From contig JAQULK010000001.1 of NCBI GenBank assembly GCA_028718635.1, forward strand, positions 88,626-152,625: a DNA stretch of 64,000 nt, written 5' to 3'. The translations under genes were made by a program, and so were the position numbers. Under the pieces are notes generated by a model. That model saw only the letters and a list, made by a program, of their open reading frames with translations, searched no databases and had not been told where the DNA came from. This document shows, piece after piece, positions 5,328-63,194 of this stretch. Source of the DNA: Minisyncoccota bacterium (lineage in GTDB: Bacteria; Patescibacteriota; Minisyncoccia; Phycocordibacterales; UBA9973). The number at the start of each line of letters is the position of its first letter. Positions within the stretch are counted from its first letter, which is position 1.

Positions 5328-5383
5328 GGATCACGTTAGAGATAGAGGGTCGCTGCGATCCCTCGCGATCTCTAACGTGATGG
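5328..5383. repeat. palindromic element related to family A (CACGTTAGAGAT...ATCTCTAACGTG)
   Basis: Terminal inverted repeats enclose a GC-rich inner palindrome AGAGGGTCGCTGCGATCCCTCGCG. Intergenic, between the ClpA-like gene and rny. Confidence 0.6.
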
Positions 5384-13311: not shown

Positions 13312-14514
13312 ATGATGTTTTACAAACACTGCAAAAATTATACAGTCGAGAGCGTGACCTCCGGCCACCCGGATAAAATCTGTGATCAAATATCAGATGC
13401 TATTTTAGACGCTTATTTAAAGTTAGACCCGAAAAGCCGAGTGGCTATAGAAACCTTTGGCGGACATGGTCGCCTTGTTATTGGTGGAGAAGTAACATCC
13501 CTCGGGCATAGTCCTACGGGCGAGCCAAAAGGAAAAGTAAATTATGTGCAAATAGCGCGAGATGTTTATAAAAAGATTGGCTACACAGACAAGCTTGAAA
13601 TCTCTGCCAATATAGTCACTCAGTCTCCAGACATTGCTTTAGGAGTAGACACAGGCGGTGCTGGAGACCAAGGCATCATGTATGGATATGCCACTGATGA
13701 AACGCCTGAGTTTCTACCAAAAGGAATAGTGTTGGCGCACAAACTTGCAAAACAATTAGAAGAAATGAGAAAAAGTGGAAAAATAAAATGGCTCAGGCCC
13801 GATGGAAAAACGCAAGTCACTTATACCAATGGGAAATTAAATACTGTACTAGTTAGCACCCAACATTCTCCAAATATTAAACTGGAAGAAATAAAAAAGG
13901 AAATTACAAAAAAAGTGATATTACCCTTACTCTCCAAAGAAGAAAGAAAAAGGGCCTGTCCCGTTAGAGGCCACGAGGGCTCGCAGTGTGTCTCTGCCTC
14001 TAATGGGATAAAAATTTTAGTAAATCCAACGGGTAAATTTACTGCTGGCGGTTTCGAAGCGGACACCGGTCTAACTGGAAGAAAAATAATGATAGATACT
14101 TATGGCGGGCTCGTTCCGCACGGAGGCGGATGTTTCTCTGGGAAAGATGCCACCAAAGTAGACCGCTCTGGCGCTTATATGGCGCGTTTTGTCGCCAAAA
14201 ATCTCGTAGCAAACGGATACGGCAAAGAAGCCTTAGTGTCTGTCGCCTACGCTATCGGAATGGCAGAACCCTTGATGATAGAAGCCATAAATGAAAAAGG
14301 TGAAGATTTGTCAAAAGTAGTCCGAGAGCATTTTGATTTCAAACCGCTTGCCATAATAAAAAAACTTGGTCTTCAAAATCCTATTTATGAGCAAACCGCT
14401 ACCTATGGCCATTTCGGTAAAAAAAATCTCCCGTGGGAAAAGATTTGTCCCGTTAGAGGCCGCGAGGGCTCGCAGCGACCCTCTGCCTCTAACGGGATTG
14501 AAAAAACAAAATAA
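13312..14514 (+). CDS. metK: S-adenosylmethionine synthetase carrying two in-frame family A repeat insertions
   Basis: ESVTSGHPDKICDQISDAILDA, GGGCFSGKD and ATYGHFG motifs. Repeat copies 13959..14008 and 14447..14497 encode CPVRGHEGSQCVSASNG and CPVRGREGSQRPSASNGIEKTK. Confidence 0.85.
   Translation: MMFYKHCKNYTVESVTSGHPDKICDQISDAILDAYLKLDPKSRVAIETFGGHGRLVIGGEVTSLGHSPTGEPKGKVNYVQIARDVYKKIGYTDKLEISANIVTQSPDIALGVDTGGAGDQGIMYGYATDETPEFLPKGIVLAHKLAKQLEEMRKSGKIKWLRPDGKTQVTYTNGKLNTVLVSTQHSPNIKLEEIKKEITKKVILPLLSKEERKRACPVRGHEGSQCVSASNGIKILVNPTGKFTAGGFEADTGLTGRKIMIDTYGGLVPHGGGCFSGKDATKVDRSGAYMARFVAKNLVANGYGKEALVSVAYAIGMAEPLMIEAINEKGEDLSKVVREHFDFKPLAIIKKLGLQNPIYEQTATYGHFGKKNLPWEKICPVRGREGSQRPSASNGIEKTK
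13959..14008. repeat. family A palindromic element (CCCGTTAGAGGC...GCCTCTAATGGG) inside metK
   Basis: Inverted-repeat termini. Internal CACGAGGGCTCGCAG. In-frame within the coding region. Confidence 0.8.
14447..14497. repeat. family A palindromic element at the metK 3' end
   Basis: Near-identical to 62844..62895. Extends the metK C-terminus by about 22 codons. Confidence 0.8.
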
Positions 14515-21997: not shown

Positions 21998-22120
21998 ATC
22001 CCGTTAGAAGTCTCCTAGTTAAACAAAGTCACAAAGAGTGATATAATAAGTTTGTATTTTTTATAGTCGTTATTAATAAATTAACTAACGGAAATCTAAA
22101 GATTTCCTACTTCTAACGGG
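21998..22120. repeat. family A element (~120 bp, CCCGTTAGAAGTCTCC...TCCTACTTCTAACGGG)
   Basis: Fills exactly the gap between the xth stop and the ATG of the downstream gene. Confidence 0.75.
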
Positions 22121-22738
22121 ATGAAAGCAGCTAGATTAGAAACTCTTGCAGACGGCATTTTTGCCATCGTGATGACAATCTTGGTTTTTCAAATTAGGCC
22201 GCCGGTTTTGGTGGATCCTACGAATGCCAAAGAACTTGCCTTCGCGATAAAACACATGCTCCCGATTTTCCTTAGTTATCTTTTAAGTTTTTCTCTGCTT
22301 TTTTCTTATTGGCGGGCACATCATTTCTTTGTTTCAGTTTATGCGAAAAATATTGACGTCAATCTGACGAATCTTAATGCGATTTTTTTCTTATTCCTCG
22401 CGCTTATTCCTTTTTCCACTTCTCTGCTCGGAGAGTATAGCAACAATCAATTTTCAATAGTTATTTTTGGCATTCATACCGTCATTATGGGTTTTTGTCT
22501 TTTTGCCATTCGCAGTTATGTGTTTAACTCCGATCATATAAAAAATATCGATGTCAGCAGACAAGAAATACGCCGTGGTACTGTCCGAACCTTTGTGCCT
22601 GTGGTTTTCGGTTTATTGGCAATTGTTCTTTCTTTTTTCAACAATTATCTATCTCTCGTTCTCTTTACCCTCGCTGTGATTTTCAACTTTTCTCAAACAA
22701 GTACTGTCTTTATAGATAAATTTATCAAAAATCTATAG
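22121..22738 (+). CDS. DUF1211/TMEM175-like membrane protein
   Basis: RLETLADGIFAIVMTILVFQI matches the RxxxFSDGV motif, followed by further TM helices. Confidence 0.65.
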   Translation: MKAARLETLADGIFAIVMTILVFQIRPPVLVDPTNAKELAFAIKHMLPIFLSYLLSFSLLFSYWRAHHFFVSVYAKNIDVNLTNLNAIFFLFLALIPFSTSLLGEYSNNQFSIVIFGIHTVIMGFCLFAIRSYVFNSDHIKNIDVSRQEIRRGTVRTFVPVVFGLLAIVLSFFNNYLSLVLFTLAVIFNFSQTSTVFIDKFIKNL

Positions 22739-25911: not shown

Positions 25912-27594
25912 TTACTTCACTCCATGTTTCGTGTGTAGTTTTTTTACCTCTTCTTCTTCTAATTCTTCTTTTTTTTCTTTTCCGCGCAGACCGAGAGTTT
26001 TGAGTTCCGCATCCCCAAGCATATTTAAAGATTTTACCAATTCAGACAAATGTTCCACGGTATTTTTCTCCGGGGCATCCAGCACTTCTTCGAGCAACGC
26101 ATGCAAAATCCACCCCATCCGCGGTCCGGAAGTTATTCCGAGTTCTTTTATCATAAATTCTCCGTTGATTTTTAGCTGTCCGACAGAAATCGGATCCCTC
26201 AAAGCCTCCTCGATCATGGCAAAATATTTTCGAAGCCGATACGGGGCTTCTTTCTTTTTCATTCCCACCCTGTCGCACTCACGGACATCCATTAAAAGCC
26301 AAATATTTTCTTTGCCGACTTTTGTAATAATTCTTCGCACTGCCGAAAGTGTGATCAATTCCGTATCGGAAAAAAACATATGATTGCGCACAAGCTTGGA
26401 CACCAATTCAATTTCTTTTTTAGGAAATTTTAATCTCTCCATTATTTTTTTTGCCATTCGCGCCCCGACAACTTCATGCCCGTAAAAAGTAAATTTCTTT
26501 TTAGCTTTTAAAGACGAAGACGGGGAAATAAATTTGCTTTCGCGGGGTGTCTCGCAGGCTGACGAGCCGAGAGGCAGCGCTGTGCGAGCACGCACAGACA
26601 GCGACCCCGAGAAAGCAGAATTTATTTCCCCGTCTTGTTTCCCTGCAAGTCTTCTAGCTCGCGGTTTCCCAATATCATGAAAAAGCGCTGCGAGCCTTAT
26701 TTCTAAAGACCAATTCTTGTTCGCTGCATGTTGCAATGCAAGTAATGAATGATTCCAAACATCATAAATATGCTCCCCCCCTTGTTCACAATCCACGCCT
26801 TCGAGTAATTCAGGAATTATATTTTTTAACAAATTAAATTTCTGAAGCATTAGCACTCCAGAAGAAGCATTGGCACTAGTTGTTATTTTTACAAATTCAT
26901 CTCGGATTCTTTCCTCAGAAATTTTTTTTATTAATTCCGAATTTTTCAAAATACTTTCCGTTGTTTCTTGCGCAATAAAAAAATTAAGTTGGCAAGAGAA
27001 ACGCACCGCGCGCAACATCCGAAGAGCATCTTCGGCAAAGCGGTCATCTGGATCCCCTACCGCTTTTAACGTCTTGTCCTTAATGTCCTTTATGCCGTCA
27101 AACAAATCTACGAGGTGTCCTTTAGGGCTTAAGGCCATTGCATTGACTGTAAAATCACGTCTCTTGAGGTCATCCTCTAACTTATCACTGAATTTTACCT
27201 CATCAGGATGCCGAAAATCGCTGTATTTTGCCTCTGTTCTATATGGAGTAACTTCAATTATGAAATTATGGGATGTTTCACGAATAACGTCTTGTATTTC
27301 CCCCTCTCCTTTACAAGGAGAGGGTTGGGGTGAGGTTCCCAATGTTTCACGGGAAACAACCACTGCGACCGTTCCAAACGTATTTTCATATACAGTCTTC
27401 TCAAAAAGCCCTATTATTTGTTCCGGTTTTGCATTCGTCGTGACATCCCAGTCGTTTGGTATTTTATCCATTAAAAGATCTCGAACACACCCGCCAACTA
27501 AATATGCCTCAAATCCGGCCTTTTCGAGCGTATTTGTTACATGTGAAACTTCTTTGGGGATTTTGGATATTAAGTTTTTAGTTATTGAATCCAC
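25912..27594 (-). CDS. cca: CCA-adding tRNA nucleotidyltransferase with HD domain, carrying two in-frame palindromic insertions
   Basis: GGCVRDLLM and RRDFTVNAMA (polymerase head). HD motif LFHDIGKP. Insertions at about 27296..27345 and 26518..26625. Confidence 0.85.
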   Translation of the reverse strand: MDSITKNLISKIPKEVSHVTNTLEKAGFEAYLVGGCVRDLLMDKIPNDWDVTTNAKPEQIIGLFEKTVYENTFGTVAVVVSRETLGTSPQPSPCKGEGEIQDVIRETSHNFIIEVTPYRTEAKYSDFRHPDEVKFSDKLEDDLKRRDFTVNAMALSPKGHLVDLFDGIKDIKDKTLKAVGDPDDRFAEDALRMLRAVRFSCQLNFFIAQETTESILKNSELIKKISEERIRDEFVKITTSANASSGVLMLQKFNLLKNIIPELLEGVDCEQGGEHIYDVWNHSLLALQHAANKNWSLEIRLAALFHDIGKPRARRLAGKQDGEINSAFSGSLSVRARTALPLGSSACETPRESKFISPSSSLKAKKKFTFYGHEVVGARMAKKIMERLKFPKKEIELVSKLVRNHMFFSDTELITLSAVRRIITKVGKENIWLLMDVRECDRVGMKKKEAPYRLRKYFAMIEEALRDPISVGQLKINGEFMIKELGITSGPRMGWILHALLEEVLDAPEKNTVEHLSELVKSLNMLGDAELKTLGLRGKEKKEELEEEEVKKLHTKHGVK

Positions 27595-30918: not shown

Positions 30919-31290
30919 GTGGATAACCCCCACACCTTTTGTTTTATACCTTCAGGTCATATAATGATTATTATGTATTATATATATGTTCTAAAAAGCA
31001 TAAAAGATGATAAATTATATATCGGTTCGACTAATGACCTGAAGCGAAGACTTTCGGAACACAACAATGGATTTAATCGTTCAACAAAAGCTAGGCGACC
31101 ATTTGAACTTCGCTATTATGAAGCTTGTGCCAATGAACATGATGCTAGAACTAGAGAATATAATTTAAAAAAAGATGGAAAAGCGCTTGGGCAACTAAAA
31201 AGAAGGATTTCCGAAAGTCTTAAATAAATCCCCACAACCTATTTGGATAGGTGTGGGGATAAAACGAAAGGTGTGGGGGATAACCCTTTT
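30919..31290. mobile_element. GIY-YIG gene bounded by inverted repeats (family B: TGTGGATAACCCCCACACCTTT / AAAGGTGTGGGGGATAACC)
   Basis: Inverted repeats at 30921..30942 and 31270..31290 enclose one small GIY-YIG ORF. A solo derivative lies at 61068..61216. Confidence 0.6.
30964..31227 (+). CDS. small GIY-YIG nuclease-family protein
   Basis: YYIYVLKS...KLYIGSTNDLKRRLSEHN pattern. Start placed after the inverted repeat. Confidence 0.65.
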   Translation: MIIMYYIYVLKSIKDDKLYIGSTNDLKRRLSEHNNGFNRSTKARRPFELRYYEACANEHDARTREYNLKKDGKALGQLKRRISESLK

Positions 31291-33733: not shown

Positions 33734-35809
33734 GTGGATATAGAAGAAAAACATCTAAAAGGTCTAAATAGTGAGCAAAAAGAAGCGGCGCTTCATATGA
33801 AGGGACCGCTTTTGATTATTGCCGGAGCGGGAGCTGGGAAAACAAAAACGATTACGCACAGAATTGTAAATCTTATAAAAAACGGCGTGTCTCCCGATAA
33901 AATTTTGGCAGTGACCTTCACTAATAAGGCCGCTAAAGAAATGCGAGAGAGAATTATTTTAGAAATTAATAAAAACGCAAAAGGTCAAGAAAAAATTCCT
34001 TTCGTTTCCACTTTTCATTCTCTGGGAGTTTATATAATAAAAGAAAACGCCCGACTGCTCGGACTGACGAGATATTTTACTATTTTAGACGAAGGAGACG
34101 CGACCACTCTTATAAAAAATATTTTAAAAGAGCTTAGCATAGACCCGAAGCAATATGATCCAAAAAAAATAAAAAATATAATCTCGCGGGAAAAAGGAAA
34201 ATTTACAAATCTAACGGATTATATGGAGAAAGCCCTCTCCTTCGGGGAGGGTTGGGAGGGGTCTCTGGGTAAAATTACAGCTCAAGTTTGGAATTTGTAT
34301 GAAAAACAAAAAATGAAAGAGAATTCTTTAGACTTCGATGATCTGCTCTTAAAAGCGGTAAAACTACTGAAAGAAAACGAGGAAATTAGAAAAATATATC
34401 AAGAAAAATGGGAATATATCCACATTGATGAATATCAGGACACGAACGAAGCGCAATATTTGATGTCTAAATTACTTTCCGAAAAAAGTGGAAATATTTG
34501 CGTAGTCGGGGATGCCGATCAAAATATATATTCTTGGCGCGGAGCAAATTTGAAAAACATTCTGAATTTTGAAAAAGATTACCCGAATACAAAAATAATT
34601 TTGTTGGAACAAAATTACAGGTCTACAAAAAATATTCTAGAGGCGGCAAATGAAGTAATTAAGAAAAATAAATATAGGCCGGATAAAAATTTGTTTACGA
34701 AAAACATTGAAGGCGAAAAAATAGGCTTCTATGAAGCCCTAGACGAAACCGATGAAGCTGAATTCGTCGCCACAAAGATTATGGAGATACTAGACAGCGG
34801 GGCAGACTTGCTTTTTCGGGGTGTCTCGCAGGCTGACGAGCCGAGAGGCAGCGCTGTGCGAGCACGCACAGACAGCGACCCCGCAAAAGCAGAGTCTGCC
34901 CCGCTGTCTGAAATAGCCGTTTTGTATCGCGCAAATTTTCAATCGCGGGCGCTCGAAGAAGCGATGCTTCGGTACAATATTCCTTACCAAGTTTTAGGGG
35001 TTAAATTTTTTGAAAGAAAGGAAATAAAAGACACTCTCGTTTATTTGCGTGCAGCTCTCAATCCCGATAGCCTGTCTGATATAAAAAGGATCATTAATTT
35101 CCCATCGAGAGGCATTGGAAAAGTAACCTTGATGAAAATCTTTGCCGGCCAAAGAGAAACCCTGCCGGTAAAAATGCAAATAAAAATTAATAGTTTCTAT
35201 GAAACATTGGAAGAGATAAAGGAGAAAATAAATGATTTAAAAACAAGCGATCTCATAAAATTCGTAATAAAAAAGTCCGGAATTGAAACAGAACTTTCCT
35301 CTGGCACTGAAGAAGATATGGAAAGATTAGAAAACATCAAAGAGCTCGCCACCCTTGCGCTCAAATATGACAATCTAAAAAATGGAGCGGGTATAGAAAA
35401 ACTTTTAGAAGATGCCTCGCTTGCTTCAGATCAAGACTCTTTAATAATAAATCAAGAAAAGAAAGAAATAAAAAATGCGGTAAAATTAATGACAGTACAT
35501 GCTTCAAAAGGCCTTGAATTTGAATATGTTTTTGTTGTTGGATTAGAAGACGGGCTTTTTCCGCACGAGAGAATGGGAGACAGCCCAGCCTCCGCACAAG
35601 GCTTCGGCGAGACGCAGGAGGAAGAAAGAAGGCTTTTTTATGTGGCACTTACCCGCGCAAGGAGAAAATTATTTTTATCATTTGCGAATTTCCGCACTAT
35701 TTTCGGTTCGCGCAACATCAACGCTCCTTCAGAATTTATTTCTGATATTCCAGCAGATTTATTTGAAAGGGAAGGCGAAGATAGCGGGATAAAAACAATT
35801 TATTTATAA
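33734..35809 (+). CDS. uvrD: UvrD/PcrA-family ATP-dependent DNA helicase with two in-frame palindromic insertions
   Basis: Motif I AGAGAGKTKTITHR, DEYQDTN, and motifs V/VI. Insertions at about 34228..34268 and 34800..34905. Confidence 0.85.
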   Translation: MDIEEKHLKGLNSEQKEAALHMKGPLLIIAGAGAGKTKTITHRIVNLIKNGVSPDKILAVTFTNKAAKEMRERIILEINKNAKGQEKIPFVSTFHSLGVYIIKENARLLGLTRYFTILDEGDATTLIKNILKELSIDPKQYDPKKIKNIISREKGKFTNLTDYMEKALSFGEGWEGSLGKITAQVWNLYEKQKMKENSLDFDDLLLKAVKLLKENEEIRKIYQEKWEYIHIDEYQDTNEAQYLMSKLLSEKSGNICVVGDADQNIYSWRGANLKNILNFEKDYPNTKIILLEQNYRSTKNILEAANEVIKKNKYRPDKNLFTKNIEGEKIGFYEALDETDEAEFVATKIMEILDSGADLLFRGVSQADEPRGSAVRARTDSDPAKAESAPLSEIAVLYRANFQSRALEEAMLRYNIPYQVLGVKFFERKEIKDTLVYLRAALNPDSLSDIKRIINFPSRGIGKVTLMKIFAGQRETLPVKMQIKINSFYETLEEIKEKINDLKTSDLIKFVIKKSGIETELSSGTEEDMERLENIKELATLALKYDNLKNGAGIEKLLEDASLASDQDSLIINQEKKEIKNAVKLMTVHASKGLEFEYVFVVGLEDGLFPHERMGDSPASAQGFGETQEEERRLFYVALTRARRKLFLSFANFRTIFGSRNINAPSEFISDIPADLFEREGEDSGIKTIYL
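34800..34905. repeat. ~100-bp GC-rich palindromic element shared with cca (26518..26625)
   Basis: Core GGGGTGTCTCGCAGGCTGACGAGCCGAGAGGCAGCGCTGTGCGAGCACGCACAGACAGCGACCCC is identical at both loci. Short inverted flanks. In-frame in both host genes. Confidence 0.8.
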
Positions 35810-44363: not shown

Positions 44364-44957
44364 ATGGATAATAATACAGACAACACAACAGATTTATTAC
44401 AAATAAAAATTGACGAGGCAAAAGCGCAATTGCCGGAAGAAACCCGAAACGCGATCAATGCTGTTGACTATAAAGCGGTTATCTTGGAAATGAGAAAAAC
44501 AAAAGGTTACACTTTTGAACAACTGGGAGACTTGGAGACCGAAACAGAATTATTACTTTCTGGACTGACAAGTCCAGAGAATTATTCAAAAGAGCTAGAA
44601 AATAGAATGCATCTCTCAAAAGTTGAGGTCAATGAATTGATAAAAGAAATGAATGACCGCGTTTTTGCAAAAATAAAAGAAAACTTGATAAAAAGCAGTG
44701 AAGGAAAAAATGATATGAAAATATTAAATTCCGCGGGCATTGAAATAATATCCACCCCGTCTAGCAAGCTAGGCACCCCTCAAGAGGGGAATAACACTCC
44801 TCCGATTTTGGCGCAGAAATTATCCGGTTCTTTTCAAGTTCCCGTAGTGAAAACAGAACATTCTTTAGAGAATATTACCAAGACAATTGCGCCCACTCCG
44901 ATAAATGCCATTCCAAGCAAACCAGCCGTAGATCCATACCGAGAGATCCCTGAGTAA
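44364..44957 (+). CDS. hypothetical protein
   Basis: 197 aa. N-terminal region similar to 43804..44346 (LPEETRNAINAVDYK versus LPKEAQDAINASNWEK). Confidence 0.45.
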   Translation: MDNNTDNTTDLLQIKIDEAKAQLPEETRNAINAVDYKAVILEMRKTKGYTFEQLGDLETETELLLSGLTSPENYSKELENRMHLSKVEVNELIKEMNDRVFAKIKENLIKSSEGKNDMKILNSAGIEIISTPSSKLGTPQEGNNTPPILAQKLSGSFQVPVVKTEHSLENITKTIAPTPINAIPSKPAVDPYREIPE

Positions 44958-44978
44958 AAAATTCTTAATGGATATGCA

Positions 44979-45258
44979 ATCCCGTTAGAGATCACTTATG
45001 TTTTATTACACATATATTTTAAAAAGTAAGAAGGACGGTAAAATTTACACTGGATATACGCAAGACCTACGGAAGCGCCTGAATCAGCATAATAAAGGTT
45101 TATCTACATATACGAAAGGACGAGGCCCATTTATTTTGATATACTATGAAGGGTGTCTATTAGAAAGTAAAGCGAAGTCGAGAGAATTATTTTTAAAATC
45201 GGGAATGGGCAAGCGTTATCTAAAAAATAGATTAGGCGCTTCCTATCTCTAACGGGAT
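44979..45258. mobile_element. GIY-YIG gene bounded by perfect 14-bp inverted repeats ATCCCGTTAGAGAT / ATCTCTAACGGGAT (family A archetype)
   Basis: The inverted repeats directly flank the 84-aa GIY-YIG ORF. Termini match the solo family A repeats. Confidence 0.7.
44998..45252 (+). CDS. small GIY-YIG nuclease-family protein
   Basis: YYTYILKSKKDGKIYTGYTQDLRKRLNQHN. Confidence 0.7.
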   Translation: MFYYTYILKSKKDGKIYTGYTQDLRKRLNQHNKGLSTYTKGRGPFILIYYEGCLLESKAKSRELFLKSGMGKRYLKNRLGASYL

Positions 45259-45721
45259 GCAATTCAAAGTTCCACAATTTTTAGACATTGAAGATAAAAT
45301 ATTCGGCCCTTTTACTTTTAGGGAATTTGTTTATTTAGCCGGCGGGGCAGGCTTGTGTTTTATTCTTTATAAATTGCTGGGTCTTATTTTAGGAATAATA
45401 CCCATTTTAGCTGTCGCGGGATTTTCGCTCGCTCTTACTTTTTACAAACCAAATAATAAACCATTTATTAATATAATAGAATCAGGTTTTAAGTATTTTA
45501 CCCAAAATAAACTTTATATTTGGAAGAAAAAAGCAAATAAAACCACCTCTTCCCCCGCCTTCTCCAAAGGAGAAGGAGCCCTCTCCTTCGGGGAGGGTTT
45601 GGGAGGGGTAAACAAAATTCAAATGATGCATCCAGGCAGTTCCCCGTTGAGTGGGAGCAAGTTACGAGACTTGGCTTGGAGTTTAGATGTGCTGGACTTG
45701 AGTAAGCAACAATCCCGTTAG
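45257..45721 (+). CDS. PrgI-family (VirB3-analogue) membrane protein
   Basis: MQFKVPQFLDIEDKIFGPFTFREFVYLAGGAG followed by two TM helices. Lies immediately upstream of VirB4. In-frame palindromic insertion near the C-terminus. Confidence 0.55.
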   Translation: MQFKVPQFLDIEDKIFGPFTFREFVYLAGGAGLCFILYKLLGLILGIIPILAVAGFSLALTFYKPNNKPFINIIESGFKYFTQNKLYIWKKKANKTTSSPAFSKGEGALSFGEGLGGVNKIQMMHPGSSPLSGSKLRDLAWSLDVLDLSKQQSR

Positions 45722-45833
45722 AAGCCGCGGTCGCAGTTTAAAAAATATAAATATGTTAAATAGAAAAATAAAAATTAATAGAATAACAAAGCATAATCAC
45801 GGTCTGTTGACCGCGACCTGCTTCTAACGGGAT
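45711..45833. repeat. family A element (GAAGC subtype)
   Basis: Left inverted repeat contains the TAG stop of the PrgI-like gene. Right inverted repeat ends ...TAACGGGATG, giving the ATG of the next ORF. Inverse-orientation copy at 61725..61805. Confidence 0.75.
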
Positions 45834-46470
45834 GGCCTTAAACGCAAAAGCAACTCAAGAATTTGTCCCGATCAAGGAAGTCCGCGATGGAATCGTTGTA
45901 TTAAAAAACGACGAACTGCGAGCTATTGTCCTAGCCAATTCTGTCAACTTAGCCTTAAAATCTTCCGACGAACAACAGGCAACAATAATGCAATTCCAAA
46001 ATTTTCTTAACACTTTGGATTTTTCTGTGCAAATATCGATTCAATCAAGAAGACTGGACATTAGACCGTATCTTTTGCTTTTGGAAAACAGAATCAAGGT
46101 GCAAAATGAGCCTCTTTTAAAATTACAAACCAAAGAATATATAGACTTCATCAGAAATTTTACTGACTCAGTGGCAATAATGACCAAAAACTTTTTTGTA
46201 GTAGTGCCTTACACTCACACTGCCTTAAAATCAGACTCTGGAATCTTGGATAAAATATTTTCTAGAAAAAATAAAGAAGAAATAAAAGCTGCCAAACAAA
46301 TAGCCTTTGAAGAAAAAAGATCCCAATTGGAAGAAAGAGTGGCGGTCATTCAGCAAGGACTCTCTAGTTGCGGTATAAATTCAGCGCAGCTCGGCACCGA
46401 AGAAGTAGTGGAAGTATTTTATAAGGTTTTCAATCCGGGAGAGATAGAAGGGAAGATTAAAGTAGAATAG
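45832..46470 (+). CDS. VirB4/TraE-type ATPase, N-terminal segment
   Basis: FVPIKEVRDGIVVLKND...NLALKSSDEQQATIMQFQNFLNTLDFSVQISIQ resembles Gram-positive VirB4 N-termini. Confidence 0.5.
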   Translation: MALNAKATQEFVPIKEVRDGIVVLKNDELRAIVLANSVNLALKSSDEQQATIMQFQNFLNTLDFSVQISIQSRRLDIRPYLLLLENRIKVQNEPLLKLQTKEYIDFIRNFTDSVAIMTKNFFVVVPYTHTALKSDSGILDKIFSRKNKEEIKAAKQIAFEEKRSQLEERVAVIQQGLSSCGINSAQLGTEEVVEVFYKVFNPGEIEGKIKVE

Positions 46471-51740: not shown

Positions 51741-51832
51741 TATTTCCTCTCCCCCTTAATAAGGGGGAGACTGTGAGGGGGTTCTTAATTAATTCACCTC
51801 ACCCCAGCCCTCTCCTTATTAAGGAGAGGGGG
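51741..51832. repeat. compound GC-rich palindromic element (family C)
   Basis: CTCCCCCTTAATAAGGGGGAG, TTCACCTCACCCC and CCCTCTCCTTATTAAGGAGAGGG. Same compound as the insertion in 43804..44346. Ends at the jag stop codon. Confidence 0.7.
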
Positions 51833-52357
51833 CTAAATTCCACCCACGTATTTGATCACCACTCGGCGATCGCGCCCGAAACCTATGGATTCGGTTTTAA
51901 GGTCATTTGATTCAGATAAAAATTCATGAACGATTCTGCGTTCGAAGGCTGACATTGGGTCAACTTCTATATTAGACTTAAAATATCTCGCTCTTTCAGA
52001 CATCATATGGGCTATTGCACGGATATTCTCAACATGTTTTTTTTGAAAACCGTTTATATCTATAATAACAGACCCTCCCCCAACCCCTCCCTTGGCAGGG
52101 AGGGGGGTCCCTTCTCCCCCTGCTAAGGGGGAGTGCCCGAAGGGCGGGGGGGTCTTAGCTTCTATTATTCTATGAACAAGGTGGCTTAACGCGTGCAAAC
52201 CCTCACCATCACGCCCAATAAAGAAATGTGGCTCGACAACCTCTATGGAAACCCATACATTTTTATGCCCATCATCAACTATTGAAATTCCATTTAGTTT
52301 TACTGTAGTTTTTTCAATTAAGTCTTTTATTAAATTTTGAATCTCTTCTTTTTCCAT
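51833..52357 (-). CDS. jag: Jag/KhpB (KH + R3H) RNA-binding protein
   Basis: R3H motif ERRIVHEFL. In-frame double-palindrome insertion encoding PPPFGHSPLAGGEGTPLPAKGGVGGGS. Confidence 0.8.
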   Translation of the reverse strand: MEKEEIQNLIKDLIEKTTVKLNGISIVDDGHKNVWVSIEVVEPHFFIGRDGEGLHALSHLVHRIIEAKTPPPFGHSPLAGGEGTPLPAKGGVGGGSVIIDINGFQKKHVENIRAIAHMMSERARYFKSNIEVDPMSAFERRIVHEFLSESNDLKTESIGFGRDRRVVIKYVGGI

Positions 52358-52477
52358 CCCGTTAGAAGCAGATCGCGATCAACTCGCGTATCTGCCATAT
52401 TAAGTTATTAATTTTATTAATATTTGATTTCATGTTTTGTTTGTTTTTAAATTGCGATCGCGGCTTCTAACGGGATC
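52356..52477. repeat. family A element (GAAGC subtype)
   Basis: Fills the yidC-jag spacer. One end supplies the jag ATG (CTAACGGGATG on the minus strand). The other ends 5 nt before the yidC stop. Confidence 0.75.
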
Positions 52478-53250: not shown

Positions 53251-53544
53251 TTACTTCACAGAATCAATGTGATTTTTTTGCCAAGGATGGCAACGCAGAA
53301 TGCGTTTCAACCCTAAATAAATTCCTTTCCATGCGCCATATTTTTCTATCGCTTGTTTGGTGTATTCAGAACAAGATGGATAAAAAACACAAGTGTTCGC
53401 TTTCAAAAAAATTGAAATGTTTTTTTGATAAAAATTAATCCCGTTAGAAGCCGCCCTCGCTAGTAAGCGAGTGCTACAGTCACCCTGGGGCGACTTGCTT
53501 CTAACGGGATTAATTAAGTTTTGAAAGAATTGTTTTAATTTCAT
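53251..53544 (-). CDS. yidD: membrane protein insertion efficiency factor YidD with in-frame family A repeat
   Basis: C.FYPSCSEY...RILRCHPW signature. N-terminal residues [24 protein letters not shown] are encoded by repeat 53438..53512. Confidence 0.7.
53438..53512. repeat. family A element inside the yidD 5' region
   Basis: CCCGTTAGAAGCCGCCCTCGC...GCGACTTGCTTCTAACGGGAT. Right end abuts the rnpA stop codon. Confidence 0.75.
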
Positions 53545-61067: not shown

Positions 61068-61216
61068 ATGTGGATAACCCCCACACCTTTCTTGATATCA
61101 CTTTTTATTCTTTAAATAAAACGTTAAGCAGGATAGTTTTTTAAGAGAAAATATTAATAAAATAATATTTTTACTGAAAAAGTAGAATAATATCAAGAAA
61201 GGTGTGGGGGATAACT
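61068..61216. repeat. solo family B element with 21-bp perfect inverted repeats CCCCCACACCTTTCTTGATAT
   Basis: Termini match the GIY-YIG element at 30919..31290. No ORF inside. Abuts the ruvC stop. Confidence 0.7.
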
Positions 61217-61724
61217 AAAACTTTATGTGTGCAAAGGCTGTCAGAGCTATAGCGATAGCATCCAATTCATCATCAGATGTTTTTATTTTATCTATATCCA
61301 CCAAAATTTTTACCATTTTTATTATTTGTTCTTTGTTGGCTTTTCCATAGCCAGTAGTGGCAATTTTTATTTGGGGAGGAGAAGCTTCAAATATTTTTAG
61401 TCCTGCACAGGAGGCTTCGTATATCACTACTCCGCGCGCTTCAGCGACCTTCATCACTGTCTTATGATTAGTATTTAAAAATAAAGTTTCAATAGCTAAA
61501 ATTTCTGGTTTGTATTTGCTAATTACTTTATTGACCTCTGTGCCTATTAAATGTAAACGCTCACTAAATTCTAATTTAGCCGGAGTCTTAAAACATTTGG
61601 AAAAAATTACTTTTTCCTTACCCTGAAGTCCCCGCCTGCCGGATGGGCAGGTTGCCTCAGTGGTTCGTTCTAGCACTGCTATTCCCAATCGCTCATATCC
61701 TGGATCTATCCCTAAAATCATCAT
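61215..61724 (-). CDS. ruvC: crossover junction endodeoxyribonuclease RuvC with in-frame palindromic insertion
   Basis: ILGIDPG...AIETLF...DELDAIAIALT. Extra segment TTEATCPSGRRGLQGKEK is encoded by palindrome CCTGCCGGATGGGCAGG. Confidence 0.8.
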   Translation of the reverse strand: MMILGIDPGYERLGIAVLERTTEATCPSGRRGLQGKEKVIFSKCFKTPAKLEFSERLHLIGTEVNKVISKYKPEILAIETLFLNTNHKTVMKVAEARGVVIYEASCAGLKIFEASPPQIKIATTGYGKANKEQIIKMVKILVDIDKIKTSDDELDAIAIALTAFAHIKF

Positions 61725-61805
61725 CCCGTTAGAAGCAGGTCGCGGTCAGACCGTGACTACTTAAATTAATATTATTAAAATTGCGACCGCGGCTTCTAAC
61801 GGGAA
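61725..61805. repeat. family A element (inverse copy of 45711..45833)
   Basis: Occupies exactly the 81 bp between the ruvB stop (TGA 61806..61808) and the ruvC ATG. Confidence 0.8.
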
Positions 61806-62828
61806 TCATAATAATTTTTCTTGATTTTTCTTAACATCAAAATCCAAATGCTCATAAGCTTTATTTGTGGCTATTCTTCCGCGGGCGGTGCGCTCTAGTA
61901 AACCTAGCTGGATTAGATATGGCTCGATGACTTCTTCTACGGTCGCTTCTTCTTCCGACATTGCCGCAGCAATAGTTTTCAACCCCACTGGTCCGCCATT
62001 AAATTTCTCAATTAATATTTCTAAAAATTTTCTATCAGAAGAATTCAAGCCGATATCATCAATGGCGAGCATATTTAGCGCATCTCTCACGGTTTTCTGG
62101 TTCAAAAGTTTTTTATTATTCTTCTCATATACCTGAGCAAAATCCCGACAGCGTTTCAAAAAGTAATTTGCTGTGCGGGGAGTAAATCTGCTTCTCTTGG
62201 CTATTTCTTTTAGAGCATCTTCATCTAAAACTATTTTTAAAAGATTGCTTGATCTTTTTACTATTTCTCCAATTTCTTCATTGGAATAAAATTCCAATCT
62301 AAAAACTCCGCCGGAGAAACGGGAACGAAGCGGAGAAGAAACCATTGCTACTCTGGTAGTCGCCGCGATCAAAGTAAAAGGTGGCAAGTCGAGCTGGATG
62401 GTGCGCGCCGAAGGACCTTTGCCGATGATAATATCTAAAACCCCGGACTCCATCGCAGGGTAAAGTATTTCCTCAACCATTTTATTGAGCCGATGAATTT
62501 CGTCGATAAAAAGAATATCGCCAGACGCTAAATTTGTCAGGATGGAAGCCAAGTCGCCAACTTTTTCAATTGCCGGACCAGAAGTGATTTTCATCTGTCT
62601 GCCTGTCTCTTTGGCAATTAAATGCGCTAAGGTAGTTTTTCCCAATCCTGGAGGTCCGTAAAAAAGAATGTGTTCGGGGGTGTGTCCGCGTTCAAGAGCC
62701 GCCCGCAACAAGATTTTTACATTGTCTTTTATGTGTTTTTGGCCGATATATTCATTCCACTTCGTGGGGCGGAGAGTCTGATCTAGAAAAGAGTCATCTG
62801 TTGTTTCTTTTTTTATGTCTTTATTCAT
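61806..62828 (-). CDS. ruvB: Holliday junction branch migration helicase RuvB
   Basis: GPPGLGKTTLA, DILFIDEIHRL. Winged-helix C-terminus. Confidence 0.9.
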   Translation of the reverse strand: MNKDIKKETTDDSFLDQTLRPTKWNEYIGQKHIKDNVKILLRAALERGHTPEHILFYGPPGLGKTTLAHLIAKETGRQMKITSGPAIEKVGDLASILTNLASGDILFIDEIHRLNKMVEEILYPAMESGVLDIIIGKGPSARTIQLDLPPFTLIAATTRVAMVSSPLRSRFSGGVFRLEFYSNEEIGEIVKRSSNLLKIVLDEDALKEIAKRSRFTPRTANYFLKRCRDFAQVYEKNNKKLLNQKTVRDALNMLAIDDIGLNSSDRKFLEILIEKFNGGPVGLKTIAAAMSEEEATVEEVIEPYLIQLGLLERTARGRIATNKAYEHLDFDVKKNQEKLL

Positions 62829-62843: not shown

Positions 62844-62895
62844 ATCCCGTTAGAGGCCGCGAGGGCTCGCAGCGACCCTCTGCCTCTAACGGGAT
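62844..62895. repeat. family A element (GAGGC subtype)
   Basis: Near-identical to 14447..14497. Lies 16 bp upstream of the ruvB ATG. Confidence 0.8.
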
Positions 62896-63194
62896 TGACA
62901 TTGATTTTATTATATGCTATATTGTGAGCGTAGTACATTTATCAACAGGGTATCAACATAGCTATCAACATTATAGCATTTGCTTGATTAAGCATATAGT
63001 ATAATTACAAAAGAGAAAGTTTTTGTTGATATTTAAATAAGGCATTAATCTCTAAGCAATCAGCCATAGGTTATATGAATTTGCGTAGGACGTTTTGGGG
63101 CTTTAATTAGTTTCTGGAGCTATCCTATAATATTTTATTACTTTCGGAGCTCAGCTCTGAAAGGATTGTTTAGAGATTAATGCTTTTTTTGTTC

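Follow-up and report, generated by a model that had tools for sequence, protein, structure and literature searches.

The 64,000-nucleotide stretch of Minisyncoccota DNA analyzed here (the window; G+C content 36.4%) contains, at 44980..45257 on the forward strand, a 278-bp unit composed of a left terminal inverted repeat (TIR), a 5-nt spacer, an open reading frame (ORF) for a GIY-YIG protein and a right TIR, which we term the gene-bearing unit of family A. The two TIRs, TCCCGTTAGAGAT (44980..44992) and ATCTCTAACGGGA (45245..45257), are 13 bp long, and the 84-aa gene between them, a minimal GIY-YIG gene of the Slx1/UPF0213 type (44998..45252, forward strand), extends into the right one, which holds its final codons (Y L) and its TAA stop at 45250-45252. 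The unit is flanked by two copies of a target-site duplication (TSD), TGCAA, of which the upstream one (44975..44979) is preceded by the original A of a host ATG (44974) and the downstream one occupies 45258..45262. The last base of the right TIR, an A, is at the same time the first base of a host start codon, and the ATG regenerated in this way at 45257-45259 starts a PrgI-like gene (45257-45721). The whole layout is ATGCAA|TCCCGTTAGAGAT-CACTT-ATG...(84 codons)...TAT CTC TAA CGGGA|TGCAATTC. An earlier, sequence-only reading of the window had described the gene as bounded by a perfect 14-bp inverted repeat. Both 14-mers are indeed present without mismatch (ATCCCGTTAGAGAT at 44979-44992 and its perfect reverse complement at 45245-45258), but the true TIR is 13 bp, because the A and T at the far ends are part of the TGCAA duplication; likewise, the 19-bp and 6-bp spacers which it gave hold when counted from the outer ends of the repeats, but the end of the ORF with its TAA lies inside the right repeat. 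Allowing up to two mismatches, the 14-mer ATCCCGTTAGAGAT has 9 matches in the window against 0.40 expected, a number reached in none of 100 shuffles. Its 9-mer core CCCGTTAGA occurs exactly 17 times, always in facing pairs 48-276 nt apart, and 23 times with at most one mismatch against 8.0 expected. Besides the gene of this unit, the window has one further GIY-YIG ORF only, at 30973-31227.

The protein is a predicted GIY-YIG nuclease, in agreement with the sequence-only reading of the 84-aa ORF: it matches Pfam PF01541 at E 8.8e-18 (64.8 bits, where the cut-off is 22.6), and the motif residues Y4, Y6, Y17, G19, R27, H31 and E63 are invariant in 26 sequences, including those of a second family (family B, below), and conserved in 40 coding sequences (CDSs). 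An AlphaFold2 model (pLDDT 92.7) has the GIY-YIG topology in a single domain of 84 residues. The nearest solved proteins are the UPF0213 members BH0048 and EF2693 and the nuclease domain of Slx1: matches by sequence in the PDB are 1zg2 (E 2.7e-9) and 1ywl (E 1e-5), and a Foldseek search ranks 1zg2 first, followed by Slx1 at a TM-score of 0.64-0.72 (rmsd 1.4 Å), with I-TevI a much poorer match at E ~0.4. Both its closest relatives and its minimal domain are those of the Slx1/UPF0213 lineage; PHROG matches are to homing endonucleases (E ~1e-5). A decayed ORF would have spoken against a role of the protein in moving the elements, and we find the opposite: the 40 CDSs are intact, with a median dN/dS (ratio of nonsynonymous to synonymous divergence) of 0.107 and invariant catalytic-motif columns, and the nuclease ORF of family A is, as judged from these comparisons, under purifying selection.

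Family A recurs widely. The exact 84-aa protein is also encoded on a 191-kb JGI contig (L001; L numbers denote loci or genomes throughout) that is syntenic with positions 33.7-55 kb of the window at ~70-75% nucleotide identity. Between the two, the ORF is 96% identical, its 10 differences all being synonymous, and no difference exists in the arms and spacer (100% identity), as against ~70% identity in the flanks of the element. A protein search returned 1,153 close homologues, of which the best 120 are 81-100% identical and derive, where a source is named, from Nomurabacteria, Paceibacterota, Woesebacteria and Minisyncoccia; GIY-YIG homologues at E up to 1e-10 form 760 clusters. A scan of a genome collection with one genome per species returned 80 family A loci, and nearly all of them (~78) have the ORF enclosed by the same arms, the right one of which contains its TAA. 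Single genomes carry several copies. Together, 1.25 Mb from ~70 genomes contain 133 arm pairs, namely 78 gene-bearing copies (273-285 nt) and 53 solos, that is, gene-less elements with the same termini, which fall into size classes of ~46-48, 66-69, 77-79 and 107-121 nt. Thus, the termini, whose confinement to the window would have undone the idea of a dispersed family, bound the same gene or solos in many lineages of the Candidate Phyla Radiation (CPR, or Patescibacteria). Within the same 1.25 Mb, no larger element or other ORF lies between family A arms (TCCCGTTAGA), and a larger master element with these arms was sought and not found: only 7 + 8 orphan arms are left over, which, going by the list of arms, we attribute to indels, mismatched partners or contig ends. 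We also observed relatives with C...G termini on contigs assigned to non-CPR bacteria and to a Woesearchaeota bin (L074, labelled Desulfobacteraceae; L075, L078, L065, L052); as L074 has gas-vesicle genes, it is probably no mis-binned CPR contig, and family A may reach beyond the CPR. We found no match to family A among viruses or phages, and Rfam covariance models detected only four tRNAs in the window, with no intron or ribozyme match, so that neither a known RNA family nor viral carriage accounts for it.

The boundaries of the element follow from covariation between its arms: over 13 positions, these are complementary in 92-100% of the 108 distinct copies compared. The search itself imposed positions 2-10 (CCCGTTAGA). 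Position 1 covaries between the arms (T:A in 86 copies, C:G in 17), as do positions 11-13, which gives the element as T/C-CCCGTTAGA-NNN ... NNN-TCTAACGGG-A/G. The C...G terminal variant yields GTG instead of ATG at the right junction. Alternative parses of the ends, with a 2-bp duplication of AT, a 6-bp duplication or an element reading CCCG...CGGG, were dropped: T/C...A/G ends with a 4-bp TSD are preferred because of position-1 covariation, the duplications CTAA in L010 and TTGA (after a G) at the 62845 solo, and the L041/L044 pair described next.

Filled and empty versions of the same site, which the sequence-only reading had proposed to look for, are abundant. L041 (filled) and L044 (empty) have flanks that are ~97% identical and differ by the element and a 4-bp duplication with one later change: L044 reads TACAAA[TGAG]CCAAAG and L041 TACAAA[TCAG]-TCCCG...CGAGA-[TGAG]CCAAAG. 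Likewise, the solo at 53439-53509 of the window is absent in L001, which has AAAAG[TTAA]TTAAT where the window has AAAAA[TTAA]-element-[TTAA]TTAAG. The PrgI-like start is filled in 8 genomes, with the TSDs TGC, TGCA and TGCAA, and empty in 4 (L022, L035, L042, L049). At the dnaA start, L008 has a solo of 77 nt flanked by TGAA and L035 one of 117 nt flanked by TGGA; elsewhere this start is empty. The site of the 45713 solo is filled in L008 and empty in L005 (with 93% amino acid identity in the downstream protein), L037 and L048, and that of the 52357 solo is filled in L001 and empty in L005, L008 and L048. A TSD is present in 52 of 78 gene-bearing copies and 34 of 53 solos, and is 4 bp long (range 3-6). 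Further, six true gene starts, including dnaA of L001, show the pattern A-TSD-NN-TSD without an element, and in 5 of the 6 the NN is TA, which corresponds to the first and last bases of the element (background 11.7%; binomial probability ~1e-4). These A-TSD-TA-TSD sites suggest excision footprints; across whole genomes no TA enrichment between duplicated TSDs was seen, the excess being restricted to true gene starts. Family A also forms tandem or nested arrays, in which neighboring copies share a single 4-bp spacer, TGAA. Such arrays are expected if the right junction of a resident copy, CGGGA|TGAA, is itself a preferred target. They were seen at L031 10253, L052 5531, L040 9533/9987, L041 and L044 9987-10377, and L076 9984-10382. 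A sticky-end scheme of restriction and ligation, by which the TSD sequence would be inherited, is unsupported, because copies within one genome differ in their TSD (L006, L009, L013). In all, family A has the TIRs, the TSD of set length, the filled and empty sites and the multiple copies of a TIR transposon, yet none of the known transposase classes (DDE, HUH, serine, tyrosine), its sole ORF being the GIY-YIG gene.

The preferred target, another point that the sequence-only reading had left to be checked, is the sequence A|TGRA at a co-directional host start codon. The right junction is ATG in 61 and GTG in 4 of 75 gene-bearing copies, and 59 of these 65 ATG/GTG junctions open an ORF of at least 50 aa, all of which run in the direction of the nuclease gene. 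The same is true of solos of 77 nt or more, with 24 of 31 on co-directional starts and a fixed internal orientation. Insertion separates the A of the start codon from its TG, such that the old A remains upstream and the last base of the element rebuilds the codon, and more than 40 different host genes are targeted. The consensus of 61 reconstructed targets is A|TGRA with G enriched at -3 to -1 (an example of an empty target is GGGATGAAA). GG at -3/-2, found in 23% of targets as against 4% of ordinary starts, resembles the element's own right end, CGGGA|TG, and a TANNNT box lies just upstream of 56% of targets as against 33% of ordinary starts. Many start codons in the window (e.g. 54195, dnaA) and at numerous other loci are preceded, 6-9 nt before the ATG, by a TATAAT-like box, which suggests that these genomes often make leaderless or near-leaderless mRNAs; starts of this kind are over-represented among the insertion sites (the 56% against 33% just given). 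We know of no description of the start codon as a niche for transposons.

Whereas the family B unit has its own promoter-like box, the gene-bearing unit of family A lacks one. The ORF which opens at the old ATG ends 22 nt past the nuclease ATG where the TSD is 4 bp and 12 nt before it where the TSD is 5 bp; a few copies have the two fused in frame, which accounts for 92-aa variants in the databases. The nuclease ORF in turn stops at a UAA 4 nt ahead of the rebuilt host AUG. This arrangement suggests a translational relay, whereby serial termination and re-initiation would keep the host gene expressed. The coupled layout holds for the gene-bearing form only and is absent in long solos: the idea that an upstream ORF from the old ATG reads through them to the TAA of the right arm was rejected, since its stops mostly lie far upstream.

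The nine solos listed by the sequence-only reading all exist as arm pairs, and the window with its 64 kb thus holds 10 family A copies. Several sit on start codons. A 123-nt solo (21999..22121, forward strand; TSD TGAA) lies on the start codon of the ORF 22121-22738, occupies the entire gap between two operon genes and has a gene-proximal hairpin, GGAAATCTAAAGATTTCC. A 120-nt solo (45713..45832, forward) on the start codon of a TraC-like gene (45832-46470) has no clean TSD, and its left arm provides the TAG stop of the ORF 45257-45721. A 119-nt solo (52357..52475, minus strand; TSD TGGA) lies on the start codon of an R3H gene (51833-52357, minus), and an 81-nt solo (61724..61804, minus) on that of the ORF 61215-61724 (minus), with the TSD TGAT on the gene strand. 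Among the 50-nt solos, that at 5331..5380 (arms TCACGTTAGAGAT, TSD TGGA) is in a divergent intergenic region and has its core inverted relative to the copy at 62845..62894 (TSD TTGA), which lies 17 nt upstream of the start of the ORF 61806-62828. Two further 50-nt copies, on the forward strand, are not intergenic but lie in frame in the gene for MetK: one at 13959..14008 is translated as PVRGHEGSQCVSASNG and makes up a loop that solved MetK structures lack, and one at 14448..14497 is at the 3′ end (PVRGREGSQRPSASNG). Also within a gene is a GC-rich 71-nt solo (53439..53509, minus; TSD TTAA) that lies in frame in YidD and adds 25 residues to it; its duplicated TTAA also provides rnpA with its stop codon, so that a single insertion has altered two genes that overlap.

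These in-gene copies follow a rule. Short GC-rich solos (45-69 nt) are mostly found away from gene starts, and eight solos, all short, lie within long ORFs (MetK twice, YidD and five at other loci). They are always in their sole stop-free frame, CCC GTT AGA ... TCT AAC GGG, which reads PVR...SNG, and their length with the terminal T and A and the TSD comes to 51, 54, 72 or 75 nt; these constraints on frame and length argue for translation of the inserts rather than splicing. Strong hairpins are predicted for the elements (z -5.5 to -6.7; -5.8 for the 62845 solo as single-stranded DNA), and the gene-proximal arm of long solos is preceded by a covarying hairpin (GGAAATCTAAAGATTTCC, GGTCGTCTAAAGACGACC, GATAATGTAAACATTATC). 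The sequence-only reading had likened the relation of gene and solos to that of a homing endonuclease to MITEs (miniature inverted-repeat transposable elements). As in MITEs, the solos carry the termini and TSD of the gene-bearing element, have no coding capacity and occur in multiple copies; but the family as a whole behaves like a transposon rather than a classical homing gene, and only the termini are common to the two forms. An origin of the solos as deletion derivatives, from which MITEs draw their internal sequence, was rejected for lack of internal similarity: just one of those tested has an internal match to the gene-bearing unit, of 17 nt.

Family B offers a parallel to this arrangement. 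The second GIY-YIG ORF of the window (30973-31227), 49% identical to that of family A, belongs to a unit at 30927..31279 on the forward strand, which has repeats of ~20 bp (CCCCCACACCTTT.../...AAAGGTGTGGGGG), the TSD ATAA and a TATAAT box of its own; a family B solo with the same arms and TSD lies at 61078..61210. This architecture is kept in most of 76 metagenome loci inspected, and we count 87 distinct family B elements, including solos of 28-140 nt, with a TSD of 4 bp in 50 of 86 and of 5 bp in 8 of 86, at sites that are not start codons. Both copies in the window are in TGTGG|ATAA|C, and 25 of 86 elsewhere adjoin TTATCCAC(A), which is like the DnaA-box consensus; this flank could belong to the element or reflect a preference in target. 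That two clades of nuclease each have private repeats and solos and an equal length of duplication is the strongest comparative argument for the nuclease as the cognate enzyme. The association does not extend to all small GIY-YIG genes, as one of them, that of L163, has no repeats.

From these observations, family A is probably a population of very small mobile elements of CPR bacteria that are moved by their own nuclease. That the GIY-YIG protein mobilizes both itself and shorter elements, as the sequence-only reading proposed, is supported by the shared termini, the intact ORF and the polymorphism of sites, with the part of the enzyme inferred. We posit that the nuclease, probably as a dimer, recognizes the conserved 10-bp tip or the stem of both arms, or both, and cuts the ends of the element as well as A|TGRA targets; on insertion, a staggered cut would duplicate the 4 bp (range 3-6), and host repair and ligation might then bring a cut-and-paste or copy event to its end. 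Slx1 cleaves branched DNA close to the branch point (PMC6902002), which, with the strong hairpins of the elements, makes structure-directed recognition of paired arms plausible. The nuclease would also act in trans on solos. The gene-bearing form would be read from the initiation signals of the host gene, and short GC-rich solos would persist within genes where they are, with their duplication, a multiple of three and stop-free as PVR...SNG. We hold it to be an even question whether the 84-residue protein mobilizes, by itself and through structure-specific recognition of ends, what would be a new class of prokaryotic transposable element. The odds seem similarly balanced on the remaining parts of this reading, namely that the element is adapted to start codons, borrowing host initiation and returning it via its own last base, and that its short derivatives are the CPR counterpart of the palindromic elements of Rickettsia (RPEs).

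Several points weigh against this account, the evidence for which is comparative throughout. To our knowledge, GIY-YIG enzymes are hydrolases with no strand-transfer or joining activity, and none is known as a transposase. The 84 residues include no recognizable DNA-binding domain, and a 5-nt target is insufficient by itself for start-codon specificity: a census gives 5,620 ATGRA in coding sequence, 889 in other non-coding sequence and 456 at ORF starts, and if insertions in coding sequence were simply purged, no more than 34% would be expected at starts, against the 59 of 75 (79%) observed. The count of footprints is small (5 cases). Translation of host genes behind solos of 77-121 nt finds no explanation in the proposed relay. 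A small GIY-YIG protein 56% identical to ours is encoded without repeats in L163. Solos and gene-bearing unit have nothing in common beyond ~13-20 nt at each end, and the solos mostly differ from the unit at TIR positions 11-13, with variants (AGAAGC, AGAAGT, AGAGGC) that are rare among gene-bearing copies; as they share only termini and differ even there, a separate enzyme outside our sample could move both.

This last thought leads to the main rival, which would have the repeats be MITEs moved by an unlinked transposase and the GIY-YIG gene a selfish or cargo coloniser of the loop of one such MITE lineage, much as homing endonuclease genes colonise introns. It draws on the same limited likeness of solos and unit and their distinct TIR variants, on the lack of a known joining activity and on the existence of a related small GIY-YIG gene without TIRs. 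Against it, no other arm-bounded ORF was found in the 1.25 Mb from ~70 genomes. Further, nearly all copies of this GIY-YIG clade lie inside the repeats with the stop codon embedded in the right arm, a second clade has its own repeats and solos with the same 4-bp TSD, and the ORF, in a multi-copy and horizontally moving element, is under strong purifying selection. We accordingly regard this rival as unlikely, if the best of the alternatives.

A second alternative is classical homing, in which empty alleles would be cut and filled by homologous repair, the repeats serving RNA structure or expression only. The fold is the classic one of homing endonucleases, as the PHROG matches reflect, and the element is younger than its surroundings, as would be expected of a homing gene. 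In the eight genomes that share the insertion at the PrgI start (28 pairs), synonymous divergence (dS) of the nuclease gene is 0.22-1.65, as against 1 to saturated in most pairs for the adjacent PrgI, TraC-like and VirB4-like genes; in a few of the most diverged pairs, the nuclease dS overlaps the low end of the host-gene range. On this measure, the family A element is younger than its host neighbors. Yet the divergence jumps at the boundary of the element: synonymous differences make up a proportion (pS) of 0.19-0.67 for the ORF, as opposed to 0.46-1.05 for the first 30 codons of the host gene, the host value being the greater in every pair. A gradient of co-conversion was looked for at the PrgI site and not seen, nor was any long tract. 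The jump in pS and the occurrence of TSDs of 3, 4 and 5 bp at one and the same start codon argue for repeated insertion rather than homing by homologous repair. Moreover, homing would have to accommodate more than 40 different host genes, 4-bp duplications with TIRs, a protein that has no extended DNA-binding region for one long target and is nearer in structure to Slx1 than to I-TevI, and solos, which it leaves unexplained; we therefore consider it quite improbable.

It is also conceivable that the elements are domesticated hairpins at gene starts, served by a housekeeping Slx1-like enzyme and of negligible current mobility. The fixed orientation to the gene even in solos and the covarying hairpin by the gene-proximal arm would fit such a host function, as would the retention of the solo at the R3H start in two genomes that are ~70% identical, and prokaryotic Slx1-like proteins are regarded as vertically inherited (PMC1564403). 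Against this stand the filled and empty sites between flanks of ~97% identity, the footprints, the several nuclease copies per genome, an element dS far below that of the host, the in-frame insertions in conserved enzymes and the tandem arrays, which together render a purely domestic role very improbable. Lastly, an event at the level of RNA, with the arms pairing in the mRNA and the element removed like an intron or bypassed such that its position in the DNA is neutral, would suit arms that flank the element exactly, a start codon doubled on both sides and very stable hairpins, and has a loose precedent in the bypass of phage T4 gene 60, which is linked to a mobile endonuclease cassette, but is scarcely credible given that elements within ORFs are only stop-free and of 51, 54, 72 or 75 nt, as expected if translated, that no Rfam intron or ribozyme matches and that an RNA step leaves the target duplications unexplained.

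Comparison with known systems sets the preferred reading, of an element moved by its own nuclease, in context. In kind, family A is a TIR element with non-autonomous relatives, and would form a new class if the nuclease acts alone. With TIR transposons and MITEs it has in common the TIRs, the short TSD, the filled and empty sites, the multiple copies, the gene-less forms with the same termini and the apparent excision footprints. It differs from them in that its sole gene codes for an 84-aa GIY-YIG hydrolase and not a DDE, HUH, serine or tyrosine transposase, and in being a unit of 278 bp without its own promoter that is aimed at start codons, with a last base that rebuilds the codon; the smallest insertion sequences or self-contained elements known to us are of ~700 bp (IS200). 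The RAYT/REPIN systems are alike in having a small nuclease gene flanked by inverted palindromic repeats and dispersed gene-less hairpins that are presumably moved in trans. However, RAYTs are single-copy and vertically inherited enzymes of the HUH/Y1 type, and REPINs are extragenic and make no target duplications (PMC3116915, PMC3337134), as opposed to the multi-copy and horizontally spreading GIY-YIG enzyme of family A with its 4-bp TSD and its sites at start codons and in frame; a search of family A for the HUH/Y1 transposase (Pfam Y1_Tnp) gave no match.

Homing endonucleases such as I-TevI and the Seg proteins of T4 resemble family A in that a GIY-YIG protein is the sole product of a selfish intergenic insert younger than its flanks. 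They have long DNA-binding domains, one long site and co-conversion tracts, and no TIRs, TSD or MITE-like derivatives; family A, by contrast, has a bare catalytic domain nearer to Slx1, many targets, TIRs and a TSD, with no co-conversion. The RPEs are likewise short palindromes that lie in frame in protein genes and are apparently translated; they are ~100-150 bp long, are known from Rickettsia only and have no known associated enzyme. Family A differs in that its in-frame copies are 45-69 nt, that a gene-bearing relative exists and that the host phylum is another, the comparison being one of form. The Slx1/UPF0213 proteins (YhbQ, BH0048, EF2693) provide the best matches and have the same minimal beta-beta-alpha-beta-alpha-alpha domain. 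A survey of the GIY-YIG superfamily in 2006 took the prokaryotic Slx1-like proteins to be vertically inherited, single-copy housekeeping or repair factors (PMC1564403), whereas the family A clade is bounded by repeats, multi-copy and mobile. In eukaryotes, Penelope-like retroelements, too, place a GIY-YIG nuclease in a mobile element with short target duplications, but need a reverse transcriptase, which family A neither has nor has room for. Our search of the literature brought up no TIR-bounded GIY-YIG unit and no MITE of the CPR, though reports beyond the searched literature are possible. A 2025 study merely lists a GIY-YIG protein among genes transferred from Patescibacteria, and a 2024 review of prokaryotic MITEs does not contain the term GIY-YIG.

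Were the nuclease confirmed as the mobilizing enzyme, GIY-YIG would join DDE, HUH, serine, tyrosine and Cas1 as a catalytic class of prokaryotic DNA transposition, and the minimum size of a self-contained mobile element would fall below 300 bp. The start codon would constitute a niche in which promoter, ribosome entry and the codon itself are first borrowed and then returned. Thousands of CPR annotations as 'GIY-YIG nuclease family protein' would have to be reread, N-terminal extensions and internal PVR...SNG inserts of CPR proteins could be flagged as derived from elements, and long-unexplained in-frame palindromic repeats such as the RPEs would gain a candidate class of enzyme. The family A nuclease might also represent a very small, possibly programmable, structure-directed nuclease. 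More generally, the density of family A copies in the window illustrates that these streamlined genomes can bear a heavy load of repeats.

Other repeats in and around the window deserve mention in this regard. A third, GC-rich family of ~66-77 nt (GGGGTGTCTCGCAGGCTGACGAGCCGAGAGGCAGCGCTGTGCGAGCACGCACAGACAGCGACCCC) is present at 26545-26610 and 34818-34885 of the window and at 212-317 of L001; it sits in longer local inverted repeats, in which we saw no gene. More short GC-rich palindromes lie in or beside AT-rich ORFs at 44775-44790, 45553-45608 and 51750-51830, one of them being CACCCCTCAAGAGGGG. L001 too has this palindrome, in two places, and lacks a block of ~56 nt that the PrgI-like ORF of the window contains. 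In-frame palindromic inserts of several kinds seem to be scattered through the genome. At 63035-63190 of the window there is an inverted repeat with the arms TAATCTCTAAGC and GTTTAGAGATTA, 102 nt apart, which look like degenerate family A arms. Finally, another MITE-like family, AATTACGAAT ... ATTCGTAATT, is also found on gene starts (L001 10680-10815; L035 ~8750 and 9290), and one of its sites holds, in the window, the family A solo at 45713.

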